Shown: positions 10,602-16,983, numbered from the stretch's first letter. The stretch: 64,000 bases of DNA from a virus (IMGVR_UViG_3300029288_000063:160001-224000), one strand, 5' to 3'. The notes: generated from the sequence alone by a model not told the origin. Numbers and translations: made by a program.

Positions 10602-10628
10602 CCAGTTTTTCCTCGGTGGGTCGATGGT
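10602..10628 (+). promoter_or_regulatory. phage-type bipartite promoter motif, copy 1
   Basis: CCAGTTTT-N12-CGATGGT upstream of the 10673 gene. Confidence 0.7.
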
Positions 10629-10672
10629 GTGTTGTAGGGAATAAAACATAAACCCTTTCGAGGAGAAACGAG

Positions 10673-11107
10673 ATGGCGAAGAATCTGACTGCTGGTGCCG
10701 TGGTTGCCGTTGGTAAGGCTGTGAAGGATGCCGCCCTGAAGTCCGCCGCGTCCGAAATGAAGGCGGGCACCTACAACGTGGACGTGACCGTTCACGTAAC
10801 CGGCGAATATACCGTCGGTGAAGCCTATGAGCAGCGCGTGGTTGCCAAGGCGAAGCCGTGGACCCTGCTTGCCGTCGCCCTGAACGAGCTGAACAAGAAC
10901 CTGTCGGCTGCGGGCGAAGCCGGTCTGGACATGGAAAAGCTGATTACTATGGCGGAGAAGGTTGACCCGTCCCTCGCCGACAAAGCGGAGGCGGATGCCG
11001 CCGAAGCCATTCAGAAGGTCAAGGCACCAACCGTGCAGACCTGCAACGGAAAGATTACCACCAAGCTGGCGGTCGAGGTGGTGAATGAGTCCGTGACTAC
11101 AAAGTGA
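10673..11107 (+). CDS. hypothetical protein, probably highly expressed
   Basis: GAGGAG RBS, biased codons, own promoter motif and terminator. Confidence 0.8.
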   Translation: MAKNLTAGAVVAVGKAVKDAALKSAASEMKAGTYNVDVTVHVTGEYTVGEAYEQRVVAKAKPWTLLAVALNELNKNLSAAGEAGLDMEKLITMAEKVDPSLADKAEADAAEAIQKVKAPTVQTCNGKITTKLAVEVVNESVTTK

Positions 11108-11137
11108 GACTCCTTGGCGGCAACCTCTTGCCGTATA

Positions 11138-11172
11138 GAACCCCGACTCGTCGTCGGGGTTCAGTTTTTTTT
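11138..11172 (+). terminator. rho-independent terminator
   Basis: GAACCCCGAC-tcgtc-GTCGGGGTTC stem followed by a T tract. Confidence 0.85.
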
Positions 11173-11180
11173 GTTTTTCG

Positions 11181-11207
11181 CCAATTTTCCATTCCCCGAA
11201 CGATAGT
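11181..11207 (+). promoter_or_regulatory. bipartite promoter motif, copy 2
   Basis: CCAATTTT-N12-CGATAGT. Confidence 0.7.
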
Positions 11208-11252
11208 CTTGTGTGAAAAGAAGAAGAACCCAAAACAAAAAAGGATAAAATC

Positions 11253-11516
11253 ATGGCGAACGATACAGTCGAAGACACGGTGGTTTGCACAAACGGCGTC
11301 GAATACACGCGCACACAGCTTCTTGCGGCTTTCGAGAGAATCACCAACAAGGACAACTGGAAGCTGCCGCTGCACGGCACCATCAAAGAGAACGAGTTCG
11401 ACCTTGTCAACGATGCGGCGATTTTCTTCGCGGGTTCGCCCCTGAGCATCCTCAAGAGGGACGGGGACATGGTTGAGGTTCACGGGTTGGGTTACTACGC
11501 ATACATCGGAGCGTGA
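11253..11516 (+). CDS. hypothetical protein
   Basis: AAGGA RBS; C-terminal GYYAYIGA. Confidence 0.75.
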   Translation: MANDTVEDTVVCTNGVEYTRTQLLAAFERITNKDNWKLPLHGTIKENEFDLVNDAAIFFAGSPLSILKRDGDMVEVHGLGYYAYIGA

Positions 11517-11527
11517 AGGGAGAGACC

Positions 11528-11776
11528 ATGAGTATGCCACTGTTTCTGGTGATTTTCGGCGGGATGTTCACATTTGTTGGCGCGGTTGGCATGTTGGCGA
11601 TCATGTGGCAACTCGCACGCTCCTTCAAAGCAACCGAAGGGGTTCCCGTTCAGGAGTGCGGACACCTGTTCTTCGGAAAGCTCTCTGCGTATGCAGGTGC
11701 CATTACTATTTTCGGGTGCGGGTTGTTGCTCTTGATCACAGGGTTCCTGTGGCGCATTGTTCAGATGTGTTTTTGA
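11528..11776 (+). CDS. small membrane protein (2 TM segments)
   Basis: two hydrophobic stretches; GGGAGAG RBS. Confidence 0.7.
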   Translation: MSMPLFLVIFGGMFTFVGAVGMLAIMWQLARSFKATEGVPVQECGHLFFGKLSAYAGAITIFGCGLLLLITGFLWRIVQMCF

Positions 11777-11789
11777 ATGGAGGGCGAAC

Positions 11790-12362
11790 ATGGCAATCGA
11801 AGTCAAGGTGCCTGACGGACAGTCTGGCGTGTGGTCGGTAGAGACCTTCGTTGTTGACGAGGAAGGGGCGCGTCTGGCAAACCTGCGTGCCGCGTTCCGC
11901 AGTGGTCGGTATATCAATACGGGGACGTACAAGCGTCTCTGCCGTGGCTCGGTCATCGTGATGTCCAACACCCCCGCCGAGATTAGCGACCACCTCGGCT
12001 TCATTTGGAAAGCCCAAAAGGTCGAGAACGTCCTCATCAACGGTCTTGGTCTTGGTGTTGCCCTGTCGGAAATCCTCAAAAGCTCCGTTGTGAAGCGTGT
12101 CGATGTTGTTGAAATCTCCGAGGACGTCATCAAGCTGGTTGCGCCGACCTTCCAATCCGACAAGCGGGTCAATATCATCCATGCGGACGCGTTCGAGTAT
12201 AAGCCAGAAAGCGGCGTTCGGTATGGCGCGGTCTGGCACGATGTGTGGGACTATATCACTTGGGACAACCTCGAAGGGATGAAGAAGCTGCATCGCAAGT
12301 ATGGGCGGCGGTGTGACTGGCAGGGTTCGTGGTGCCGTGGTTTGTGTGAACGCGGTCGTTGA
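11790..12362 (+). CDS. SAM-dependent methyltransferase, spermidine-synthase-like
   Basis: VLINGLGLG, VDVVEISEDVI, HADAF, WHDVWD. Confidence 0.75.
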   Translation: MAIEVKVPDGQSGVWSVETFVVDEEGARLANLRAAFRSGRYINTGTYKRLCRGSVIVMSNTPAEISDHLGFIWKAQKVENVLINGLGLGVALSEILKSSVVKRVDVVEISEDVIKLVAPTFQSDKRVNIIHADAFEYKPESGVRYGAVWHDVWDYITWDNLEGMKKLHRKYGRRCDWQGSWCRGLCERGR

Positions 12363-12402
12363 TTTGTGTTCCTGACAACAAGATTCAGAGAGGAGAAAAC
12401 AG

Positions 12403-15045: not shown

Positions 15046-15060
15046 AAAGATTTTTCCCTC

Positions 15061-15087
15061 CGATTTTTTCCCTGTCTGAACGATGTT
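15061..15087 (+). promoter_or_regulatory. bipartite promoter motif, copy 5
   Basis: CGATTTTT-N12-CGATGTT; shares gaacgat..tcttgtgtgaaa with copy 2. Confidence 0.7.
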
Positions 15088-15131
15088 CTTGTGTGAAACA
15101 ACAACAAGGATAACGAAAGGGAGAACAGGAC

Positions 15132-15362
15132 ATGTCGAATTTTGTCGAGATAGCTGATTTCCTCGAAGTGAATCTGAAAGCCATGTGTGTCGAGCTTCGC
15201 GACATGCGTAAGACGGGCACCCTCAAAAACGAAGGATTGGTCATGCAACTGGCGCACATGTGTCAAAGCGACGAGATGAACGCTGACGATGCCATCTGGT
15301 GTGTCACATCGCTTGTTCGGGAGCTGGCGGTGGATTTCGTCGTCAATAACGCAAAAACCTGA
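15132..15362 (+). CDS. hypothetical protein
   Basis: RBS and upstream promoter motif. Confidence 0.65.
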   Translation: MSNFVEIADFLEVNLKAMCVELRDMRKTGTLKNEGLVMQLAHMCQSDEMNADDAIWCVTSLVRELAVDFVVNNAKT

Positions 15363-15374
15363 AGGAGAATACCG

Positions 15375-15560
15375 ATGAAGCGCATGGACCACAGAGCATA
15401 TCCGCTTTCGCTGCGCAAGAAGTCCGTGGAGCAGCTTCGGTTCATTATCAAGGACGCGGGCGATGCGATGCGGGCTATGCCGGATGGTGAGAACGCCGAT
15501 TACTATGCCGACGAAGTCAACTATGCGAGTATGGAGCTGCGTCTGCGAGGTGTCCGGTGA
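15375..15560 (+). CDS. hypothetical phage protein
   Basis: LRFIIKDA...YYADEV motif; AAGGAG RBS. Confidence 0.7.
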   Translation: MKRMDHRAYPLSLRKKSVEQLRFIIKDAGDAMRAMPDGENADYYADEVNYASMELRLRGVR

Positions 15561-16049
15561 GTATGGTAGATTTCCTCATGCAGAACGTCGAGGGTTGTCG
15601 TAGGCTCGACCTCTGTCATAAGGCATGTTTGTGGTGCTGATTTTGTTTTGAAAAACGGCATGCCATTCAGGTTTGAAAGCCTTCCGGTTCACGTCGCCCG
15701 TGGTGAGCCGCGTCAGTGTTTTTATAACGCCTTTGTGGCGATGATGGACAATGACGGTTTAACCTACTGTGAAGGCTTCGCGTGTGGTGATAGTGAGTTC
15801 GCCCACCTGCATGCGTGGTGTATTGATGAGGATGGTGTTGTGGTTGACCCAACTTGGGAGTCCGGAGTGGAATACGTTGGTGTTCCATTCTCGTCGTCCT
15901 TTGTCCTGAAGAGTGTTTTGAAGTCTGGTTGCAGTCTCATTGATGATTGGAAGAAGAAATGGCCGCTGCTTTCCGGTGCCGTGTCGGTAGAATCAGTGAT
16001 AAGTTGTGATTGGTTTGAATTGTGGGAAAAACGTCCAGTTTTGTGTTAA
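15557..16049 (+). pseudogene. hypothetical protein apparently split by a +1 frameshift near 15635
   Basis: coupled ORF 15557-15640 (MSMVDFLMQN...) stops where the +1 frame continues ADFVLKNG...CFYNA...HAWC...VDPTW with no RBS of its own. Confidence 0.5.
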
Positions 16050-16061
16050 ACCCCCGATGTT
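16035..16061 (+). promoter_or_regulatory. bipartite promoter motif, copy 6
   Basis: CCAGTTTT-N12-CGATGTT. Confidence 0.7.
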
Positions 16062-16076
16062 ATGTAAAGGAGGGGT

Positions 16077-16481
16077 ATGATGGAAATACATAACCGTCGT
16101 GAGCTTGCCGATAAGGTGTTGGCGTGTCTGCTTGATGCTTTGAAAAACATTAACGCCGACAAGGACGCGAGTGCTTCTGTTGGCTCGTATCAGAATGGTC
16201 GTGAGCAGGGTCACTCCCTGTTTGTCACCAACTATAGTGGGACAAAGTTCAAGTCTTTGTGGGTCGGTTTTGCGGAGCATCGTATTTCGGACGACATTGT
16301 TGTGTATTTCGACGACAACGACCCGATGCAGTCCATTACCAATTCCATGTATGATAACTCATACCACTTCGGTTGCGATGAGGTTGATGGTGCTGTGAAT
16401 TTTATCGTATCCATTGTTGACCGTGTTGTCGTGCAGGGTGGCAAGAAAAAGACTCACAAGAAGAAAGACAACAACGCATGA
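16077..16481 (+). CDS. hypothetical phage protein
   Basis: NGREQG...FAEHRISDDIVVY; AGGAGG RBS. Confidence 0.7.
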   Translation: MMEIHNRRELADKVLACLLDALKNINADKDASASVGSYQNGREQGHSLFVTNYSGTKFKSLWVGFAEHRISDDIVVYFDDNDPMQSITNSMYDNSYHFGCDEVDGAVNFIVSIVDRVVVQGGKKKTHKKKDNNA

Positions 16482-16939
16482 GAAACGAGTTTCCAGAAAA
16501 CACGGAAGAGCAAAACCGTATTCCCCGTGAGATGGTTGCCCTTGCCGAAGCTATTGCGAGAAAAGTCCATAATGGTCAGTTTCGTCGCTGTGGTTTGCCG
16601 TATATTGTTCACCCGGAGGATGTTGTTCGTCGGCTGCGGGAAACATACCCGGAAGATTTTTCCGTTCACTCTGTTGGTTGGTTGCATGATGTTCTTGAGG
16701 ACTCTGACATGCACCCGCAAGACCTGATTCGTGAAGGAATAACATGGGATGCCACATATGCCGTTTCCGTGATGACCAAGCACAAAGGGGAGAGGTACGA
16801 GGAATATCTCATTCGGGTCAAAGAAAACGATTTGGCGCGGCGCGTGAAGATTGCCGATATCCGTTCCAATCTTTCTGATGCACCAAAACCGGAAACAGCG
16901 GTAAAATATGAAAAGGCTTTGAAGTTTCTTGAAGGGTAA
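16478..16939 (+). CDS. HD-domain protein, small alarmone ((p)ppGpp) hydrolase / Mesh1-like
   Basis: HNGQFRRCGLPYIVHP, WLHDVLED, VKIADIRSNL. Confidence 0.8.
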   Translation: MRNEFPENTEEQNRIPREMVALAEAIARKVHNGQFRRCGLPYIVHPEDVVRRLRETYPEDFSVHSVGWLHDVLEDSDMHPQDLIREGITWDATYAVSVMTKHKGERYEEYLIRVKENDLARRVKIADIRSNLSDAPKPETAVKYEKALKFLEG

Positions 16940-16956
16940 TTTTTTGATAAAGTTGG

Positions 16957-16983
16957 CGAGTTTTCCACGCCTGTCACGATGGT
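16957..16983 (+). promoter_or_regulatory. bipartite promoter motif, copy 7
   Basis: CGAGTTTT-N12-CGATGGT upstream of ligA. Confidence 0.7.

Follow-up and report, generated by a model that had tools for sequence, protein, structure and literature searches.

A sense-oriented, two-box sequence class in an uncultured large phage: probable promoters and a candidate phage-encoded reader

Introduction

Which sigma factor, if any, reads a two-box sequence that recurs ahead of genes along the genome of an uncultured phage? The question arises from a stretch of 64,000 nucleotides (nt), hereafter referred to as the window, which comprises bases 160001-224000 of the 253,102-bp IMG/VR phage contig IMGVR_UViG_3300029288_000063 (CheckV completeness, 75%). 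An initial annotation of the window described a bipartite element aligned on CGAT, repeated seven times between window positions 10602 and 16983 and accompanied by a variant at 23797, and proposed that these elements are non-canonical early or middle promoters read by a phage-encoded or alternative host sigma factor. All eight strings are indeed present where they had been placed. Here, we describe the distribution and anatomy of this sequence, referred to as the CGAT class, together with its candidate reader. Window positions are counted from the first letter of the window and genome positions from the start of the contig.

Results

An iterated two-block matrix with a 1-base slack in the spacer identified 36 sites on the + strand of the whole contig and none on the - strand, with the consensus C-S-A-G-W-TTTT, 11-12 nt, CGAT-R-K-T, 4 nt, and Y-R-T. 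Because nearly all genes lie on the + strand (329, versus 4 doubtful genes on the - strand, according to a simple codon-usage gene caller run on the whole contig), the comparison of sense with antisense is a clean test here; the GC skew is also positive along the whole contig. Although intergenic DNA makes up 12.7% of the genome, 25 of the 36 sites are intergenic, and most of the others occupy the final bases of a gene, no more than 60 nt ahead of the next start codon. The genome-wide matrix scan that the initial annotation had called for thus yields sense-only, intergenic enrichment, and the motif is not equally common within genes and on the antisense strand.

As a guard against circularity, a matrix built from the seven initially annotated sites alone was scanned over the 189 kb beyond the window. 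At a threshold of 14, this matrix returned 13 sites on the + strand (10 intergenic) versus 1 on the - strand, and at a threshold of 16 it returned 10 (8 intergenic) versus 0. The simpler pattern TTTT-N12-CGATRNT occurs seven times in the window, always on the + strand, where dinucleotide shuffles predict 0.31 occurrences; across the 253-kb contig it occurs 17 times on the + strand and once on the - strand. In an unbiased intergenic count of 4-mer/gap/4-mer combinations, TTTT-N11/12-CGAT was the top pair when tRNA-derived pairs were excluded, and was present in 17 intergenic regions versus 0.8 expected.

Base counts over the 36 sites, with the C of CGAT taken as position 0, define two boxes. 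Positions 0 to 6 are C (34/36), G (36), A (35), T (36), R (36), G or T (34), and T (32), such that GATRNT retains A2 (35/36) and T6 (32/36) of the -10 hexamer, as the initial annotation had noted. On the -35 side, position -20 is C in 24 of 36 sites, -19 is C or G in 35, -18 is A in 31, -17 is G in 23, and -16 is T or A in 34, followed by T at -15 to -13 (28, 32, and 36 of 36); the T run is often longer, and an A/T-rich tract resembling an UP element extends from -27 to -22. The eight bases that separate the T run from CGAT exhibit no conservation, while the spacing is exact in 28 sites and off by one in the other 8. These sites do not conform to housekeeping sigma70 promoters, as no TTG is present at the -35 position (the upstream box is not TTGACA, in agreement with the initial annotation) and the -10 box retains A2, T3, and T6 alone.

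Downstream of the boxes, position 11 is a pyrimidine in 33 of 36 sites, position 12 is a purine in 35, and position 13 is mostly T. A pyrimidine-purine step is the usual appearance of a transcription start site. At seven sites, the Shine-Dalgarno sequence starts at position 12-13 with the start codon 22-28 nt past the C, so a usable transcript must begin by about position 12, and CGATRKT therefore falls at about -12 to -6, that is, at the -10 box. Judging from the pyrimidine-purine step at 11-12, transcription probably starts about 5-6 nt past the last T of CGATRKT, slightly closer than the 6-7 nt initially expected. An alternative arrangement, in which the TG at 11-12 would belong to an extended -10 element and CGATGGT to its -35 box or spacer, is ruled out by the positions of the ribosome-binding sites; TAnnnT follows the downstream TG in just 4-5 of the 36 sites. 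No RNA fold was detected in the motif core (mean z +0.5, no site below -2), and the T run was rejected as an RNA structure or terminator tail, given that the core is unfolded and hairpins lie upstream of three sites alone. The gap to the ribosome-binding site ranges from 0 to 45 nt, and this variability argues against a translational operator.

We consider it very likely, on the basis of this anatomy and distribution, that the sites are promoters of a distinct class. The initial promoter reading is borne out by the sense-only and intergenic distribution, the fixed spacing, the placement relative to terminators and ribosome-binding sites, and the start-like step. The class does have precedents, as the register of sigma28 promoters and the geometry of extracytoplasmic function (ECF) promoters are both recognizable in it (see Discussion).

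The contig holds two sigma-related genes in all, encoding a sigma factor of 238 amino acids (aa) and a protein of 187 aa. The search for sigma factor genes proposed in the initial annotation thus identified one two-domain ECF-like sigma gene, located outside the window at genome 144824-145540 between the primase and DEAD helicase genes. The 238-aa protein matches Sigma70_r2 (Pfam, E 1.5e-12; E 1e-13 in a separate search) and TIGR02937 (E 2e-8), and its best NCBIfam matches are ECF-type. Every top structural match of its AlphaFold model (predicted local distance difference test score, 85.6) is a sigma factor. The N-terminal domain aligns with region 2 of E. coli sigmaE in complex with -10 DNA (Z 10.7; root-mean-square deviation, 2.6 A over 91 residues), and the model aligns with sigmaE and AlgU chains over residues 12-238, covering both domains but with a high deviation. 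A sigma4-like helix-turn-helix pattern is present at the C-terminus in the family alignment. An exhaustive profile search of metagenomes found 381 relatives of this protein, 69 of them below E 1e-10. Members of the family share an N-terminal R-(V/I)-P-V-T-x-E segment and a V-C-x-S-V-L-N helix, and in the subclade of this phage the sigma4-like domain carries an insertion of about 25 residues that includes a beta hairpin.

The sequence TTGTGT-N16-TATAAT lies 75 nt upstream of the 238-aa sigma gene, and its orthologs in two relatives are preceded by TTGATT-N16-TATAAT and TTGACT-N17-TATTAA. With a sigma70-type promoter in this position, the 238-aa sigma is probably made early by the host holoenzyme. 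The 187-aa protein shows no more than a weak resemblance to the sigma region 4 helix-turn-helix (E 0.009, which does not reach the Pfam cut-off), and its gene lies beside a NusG/KOW paralog (UpxY-like, with a PHROG antiterminator match) at genome 79546-80734, directly ahead of the head operon. These two proteins are candidate late-transcription factors, and the 187-aa protein may be an analogue of T4 gp33. Two paralogs at 233.6-235.6 kb were also considered as sigma factors and rejected, as they exhibit no Pfam, NCBIfam, or PHROG sigma match and profile comparison gave a probability below 3%.

Clusters of CGAT-class sites are found in three stretches of the contig (3-68, 104-131, and 170-182 kb). 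None lies in the block of head genes between 68 and 104 kb, and only 2 weak intragenic sites occur past 183 kb. Genes behind the window sites encode a 144-aa protein without a family match, a methyltransferase, a radical SAM enzyme, a DUF6011 protein, an HD phosphohydrolase, and an NAD-dependent DNA ligase. Those behind sites elsewhere include a CobT-like protein, a second radical SAM enzyme, a small kinase, many genes without an assigned function, and both tRNA arrays. Before the tRNA arrays, at genome 105809, 108032, and 123718, the CGAT-class site overlaps a sigma70-type promoter (TTGCAC-N16-TG-TATAAT at 105809 and TTGCGC-N16-TATAGT at 123718), and these composite promoters suggest that the tRNAs may be expressed in more than one phase.

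Two other promoter-like classes coexist with the CGAT class and are just as biased towards one strand and towards intergenic DNA. The TGTATAAT class occurs 21 times on the + strand of the whole contig (16 intergenic) and once on the - strand; its TG abuts TATAAT directly, unlike the usual TGnTATAAT, which itself occurs just 7 times in the contig. Members in the window lie at 3879-3887 and 26053-26061 (genome 163882 and 186056). The other class is a T-rich single-box motif, (A)TTTTTTTATA, found ahead of structural or late-looking genes at genome 73.7-103.6 kb and 188-234 kb, for example upstream of window 28763, 39333, and 54530, and reminiscent of T4 late promoters; TTTTTTATA occurs 12 times, always in intergenic regions and never on the - strand. 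Where ordinary sigma70-like promoters had been placed, near window 3860 and at 24695, a TGTATAAT-class site and a sigma70-type candidate are found, respectively, and both are included in the list below. Given good TTGACA-type promoters such as that at 24695, the host main sigma probably uses an ordinary consensus, and the CGAT class is probably something other than the promoters of that factor.

The promoter-like sites of the window and the associated features are as follows.

10596..10636, + strand: promoter-like site, C at 10622; TTTTTCCCAGTTTTTC-N8-GTCGATGGTGTGTTGTA; two-block score 35.7, the second highest of the genome
11138..11172, + strand: intrinsic terminator, 10-bp stem with 7 GC pairs, then a T run; closes the 10673-11107 unit
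11175..11215, + strand: promoter-like site, C at 11201; CCAATTTTCC ... CGATAGTCTTGTGTG; score 31.0
12842..12882, + strand: promoter-like site, C at 12868; CAGAGTTTTTT ... CGATGGT; score 24.0
14213..14253, + strand: weak member, C at 14239 (initially annotated at 14219); CCAG and CGATACT, with the T run replaced by AAAA; score 12.1
15055..15095, + strand: promoter-like site, C at 15081; CCGATTTTTTC ... CGATGTTCTTGTGTG; score 30.3; upstream of open reading frames (ORFs) 15132-15560
16029..16069, + strand: promoter-like site, C at 16055; score 24.5; ribosome-binding site starts 12 nt past the C
16951..16991, + strand: promoter-like site, C at 16977; GCGAGTTTTCC ... CGATGGTTTGTTGTT; score 30.0
21646..21686, + strand: weak candidate of uncertain status; score 16.5; fits a TTTT-N12-CGATRNT-type pattern
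23797..23823, + strand: variant, rejected as a member; CCTGTTTTCC ... TCGATTGGT; score 2.3
3879..3887, + strand: sigma70-like site of the TGTATAAT class; CTGTATAAT; 42 nt ahead of ORF 3924
24695..24723, + strand: sigma70-type promoter candidate; TTGACA-N17-AAAAAT; ahead of ORF 24747-26033

Distances from the end of the motif to the start codon agree with those initially described; in the window, the C of CGAT lies 22-52 nt ahead of the start codon. The site at 10622 is intergenic and lies 51 nt before the ATG of ORF 10673-11107 (144 aa), while that at 11201 precedes a five-gene unit at 11253-12830, one gene of which encodes the methyltransferase. The succession of the terminator at 11138-11172 and the site at 11201 supports separate transcription units, and the sites at 14774 and 20627, outside the window, likewise lie behind strong hairpin-plus-T terminators. 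At 12868, the ribosome-binding site starts 13 nt past the C, and the radical SAM gene at 12894-13691 (Radical_SAM, Pfam, E 1.5e-9) follows. The site at 16055 precedes ORF 16077-16481 and the HD phosphohydrolase gene at 16478-16939 (phrog_990, E 2.9e-41), and that at 16977 precedes the NAD-dependent DNA ligase gene at 17026-18957 (ligase domains, E 1.5e-53) and a run of about ten genes, according to an operon estimate.

Three sites are weaker. The weak member at 14239 is intergenic, 32 nt ahead of an ATG and upstream of the DUF6011 gene at 14271-14708, and its score is composed of -0.6 for the -35 block and 12.6 for the -10 block. The candidate at 21646..21686 lies inside the 3' end of ORF 21019-21786, 111 nt ahead of ORF 21783-22901. 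The -10 box of the 23797 variant is one base longer, and no start-like step is found downstream. Six of the initially annotated sites are therefore strong, the one at 14219 is weak, and the variant is unsupported. As side observations, ARAGORN reports an 89-nt tRNA-Val (anticodon CAC) at window 16180-16268, which is probably a false positive because it lies inside the coding frame of ORF 16077-16481. Intein-interrupted genes with LAGLIDADG endonuclease domains are located at genome 52466-55189, 86957-90037, 147166-148806, and 152906-155074, and include RecA and a uracil-DNA glycosylase family gene.

In the nearest relatives, the -10 box is conserved and the -35 box drifts. A CGAT(A/G)(G/T)T box, on the + strand only and ahead of genes and tRNAs, is present in two of them, G001 (50 kb, sigma 49% identical) and G002 (46 kb, sigma 28% identical), with the downstream TGT in G002 alone. 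G001 possesses two + strand sites, of which one precedes a gene and the other tRNA genes, with a -35 box of (T/A)CAT and a T run; G002 possesses three sites, CCCC-TTTT ... CGATAGT or CGATATT followed by 4 nt and TGT. In G003 (181 kb), a conserved intergenic block, AAAAGATTTTT-N7-CTTTGGATTTT-N11-GGTAATAnATAGATGTAAG, was found (e.g., L034-L043 at 45511, 48262, 49614, and 50462), and TTTT-N11-GGAT is present in 18 intergenic regions versus about 1 expected. This block may represent the equivalent promoter class in G003, with another -10 box. In G005 (140 kb; L044-L050, reverse-complemented), the conserved block TGATAATTCTTTGATAT-N7-ATAGGT ends 18-40 nt before start codons; examples are located at 48533, 64313, and 70383. 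The complete genome G006 (304 kb) contains neither the sigma nor the motif. No CGAT-class site was found in L004 and L005, two short contigs with sigma relatives, as expected because the replication module here has none either.

Wider searches added little. Exact CCAGTTTTT-N11-CGATRKT matches in IMG/VR were single, one per contig and chance-like, with no multi-copy phage among the matches listed. A search with the single sigma protein found no further relatives; searches with smaller sigma alignments returned one 50-kb relative, and those with the G002 and G005 sigmas returned these proteins themselves and one 52-kb contig. The nucleotide search against cultured phages matched a fragment of the methyltransferase gene alone. 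The DNA ligase was also considered as a marker of host or relatives and set aside; its matches were 36% to one Byssovorax contig from a metagenome-assembled genome and 30% to unrelated phages.

Discussion

We propose, with the considerations for and against in approximate balance, that the CGAT class represents middle promoters read by the host core RNA polymerase carrying the two-domain, ECF-like 238-aa sigma of the phage. CGAT-R-K-T would constitute the -10 element, and C-S-A-G with the T run, 16 nt upstream, the -35 element, with the A/T-rich tract beyond; transcription would start at the purine 12 nt past the C of CGAT. As the sigma gene lies behind a sigma70-type promoter, the CGAT class would stand second in a cascade that leads from the host sigma through the phage sigma to the late genes. 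Its targets would be the tRNA arrays, the DNA ligase, and many accessory genes (radical SAM, CobT-like, methyltransferase, kinase, and HD hydrolase). The initial assignment of the sites to a phage-encoded or alternative host sigma fits the presence of one ECF-like sigma, the lack of a detectable phage polymerase in the contig, and the coexistence of TTGACA/TATAAT-type promoters; the particular pairing of sigma and promoter, as well as its timing, is what we infer.

Promoters of ECF (group 4) sigma factors (SigW, SigE, and similar) combine AAC and a T run with a CGT box at a distance of 16-17 nt. The CGAT class shares with them the two boxes, the trinucleotide followed by a T run, the 16-nt gap, and a -10 box that begins with CG (CSAG-16-CGAT), whereas AAC is replaced by SAG and CGT by CGA. 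In the candidate reader, the sigma2 domain has E. coli sigmaE as its nearest counterpart, while the sigma4 domain is atypical in its inserted hairpin and lack of a Pfam match.

Phage sigma factors with comparable roles have been described. Salmonella phage 7-11 gp47, which contains region 4, reads the two-box promoter GTAAtg-16-aCTA, and phiEco32 gp36, which is devoid of region 4, recognizes the single box tAATGTAtA, from which transcription starts 6-9 nt downstream (PMC8948821); gp28 and gp34 of SPO1 form a phage sigma cascade (PMC8948821, PMC13401047), and jumbo phages that lack their own polymerase encode sigma factors (PMC7824862). In such systems, a phage sigma made from a host-read promoter redirects the host core to a consensus found only in the phage. 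The 7-11 promoter resembles the CGAT class in its two-box, 16-nt architecture, with a start 6-9 nt past the -10 box, although the sequences are unrelated. Considering that the sigma with region 4 reads two boxes and the one without it reads one, the two-domain phage sigma would be a better match for the CGAT class than for the late class with its single box. In the present phage, which encodes a sigma of its own, the motif occurs throughout the genome, in sense orientation and upstream of genes. In contrast with the 7-11, phiEco32, and SPO1 systems, the CGAT class appears to serve tRNA and accessory genes and not late structural genes.

Several observations weigh against this pairing of the CGAT class with the 238-aa sigma. 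It depends on that protein being the sole two-domain sigma found in a contig that is 75% complete. The C-terminal domain carries the insertion of its subclade and has no Pfam region 4 match, and the model also resembles T4 gp55 (Z 9.1), a late sigma, such that the 238-aa sigma could serve the late single-box class instead. Moreover, G003 and G005 encode sigma orthologs at 26% identity and possess no CGAT class, whereas G002 possesses the class even though its sigma is just 28% identical; there is therefore no simple correspondence between the motif and the sigma family, and the motif could instead follow the host. Co-variation of motif and sigma across five genomes yields no clean pattern. At the residue aligned with Gln437 of sigma70, Ser is found in the three genomes with the CGAT class and Asn in two without it, too few genomes to count.

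The same distribution among relatives and the likeness to gp55 would be accommodated if an alternative sigma of the host, either FliA/sigma28-like or ECF, reads the sites and the phage sigma serves another class such as the late TTTTTTATA motif. The E. coli consensus for sigma28 (FliA/SigD/WhiG) promoters is TAAAGTTT-n11-GCCGATAA, and single changes in its TAAAG lower promoter activity about 4- to 10-fold (PMC2859248). When aligned on CGAT, this consensus places A-G-T-T-T at positions -18 to -14, exactly where these five bases fall in the sites described here, so that CGAT, AGTTT, and the 13-nt distance are common to both, with 5/8 and 4/8 consensus positions in register. However, the TAA of sigma28 corresponds to n-C-S here (C at -20 in 24/36; C or G at -19 in 35/36), which turns TAAA into n-C-S-A, and the costs of TAAAG changes imply that a canonical FliA would probably read CGAT-class sites poorly. 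Nor is the GC that precedes CGAT in sigma28 promoters conserved, as position -2 is C in 14, T in 9, G in 7, and A in 6 sites and position -1 is mixed, and the -10 box of sigma28 ends in AA where R-K-T is found here. The reader of sigma28 promoters is a group 3 sigma with regions 2, 3, and 4; for region 3, no match (Sigma70_r3) was found in the contig. A lytic phage would run a risk if about 36 units, both tRNA arrays and the ligase among them, depended on a host sigma that is only conditionally active, and an early phage sigma needs targets, for which the CGAT class is the sole two-box class available. We thus regard reading by a host alternative sigma as unlikely.

Appropriation of the host primary sigma in the manner of T4 middle transcription, with GATRKT acting as a weak -10 box and a phage activator on CSAG and the T run taking the place of the -35 contact, seems quite improbable to us. 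T4 middle promoters have their -35 box swapped for a phage-specific box and keep A2 and T6, the bases on which sigma70-type factors depend most, as do the sites here, and the phage encodes the weak region 4-like 187-aa protein and the NusG/KOW paralog. The region 4-only gene, however, sits among late genes away from the CGAT class, and the invariant C-G before A-T and the G-rich positions 4-5 are foreign to sigma70. T4 further employs AsiA and MotA; no AsiA match was found in the contig (75% complete), and a single MotCF match at E 0.033 did not reappear when scanned for directly, leaving no credible MotA. It is possible in principle that the sequence is an oriented cis element other than a promoter (an operator for a phage regulator or a signal for RNA processing, translation, replication, or packaging), and a few sites do lie inside genes or far from start codons (e.g., 64239, 16896, and 118228). 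We deem this very improbable, because two boxes separated by a non-conserved spacer of fixed length in sense-only orientation are hallmarks of promoters, the sites lie 22-60 nt ahead of start codons and behind terminators with a pyrimidine-purine step at promoter distance, and both the unfolded core and the variable distance to the ribosome-binding site speak against a role in RNA. Finally, a phage RNA polymerase might reside in the missing quarter of the genome or be too divergent for detection, as jumbo-phage polymerase subunits are very divergent. A search for a single-subunit polymerase found nothing in the contig, but carries little weight as its positive control was silent as well. Even so, no beta or beta' signal was obtained in the contig even at E 10, the -35/-10 boxes with 16-nt spacing are typical of a sigma-dependent bacterial polymerase, and the phage invests in a sigma, whereas published comparisons find jumbo phages to possess one or the other, sigma factors or a polymerase of their own (PMC7824862). 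Such a polymerase appears to us barely credible.

Returning to the phage sigma as reader, we tentatively suggest, with somewhat less than even confidence, that an uncharacterised family of phage ECF-like sigma factors (about 70 members at E < 1e-10) retargets the host polymerase to a hybrid sigma28/ECF grammar, which would form the middle tier of a TGTATAAT to CGAT to TTTTTTATA programme. The sequence would be new and the strategy known, as phage sigma cascades have been recognized since SPO1 and phiEco32, and no new principle would be involved. The finding helps in annotating this genome, and the proposed sigma and its promoters are a candidate orthogonal pair whose rules, CSAG-T5-N11-CGATRKT, can be tested with reporters. 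If this proposal is correct, the transcription map of an uncultured phage of more than 250 kb would become readable; a three-tier programme would govern its tRNA arrays and auxiliary metabolism, with the phage sigma co-activating about 36 units, among them both arrays, the DNA ligase, and many auxiliary genes.

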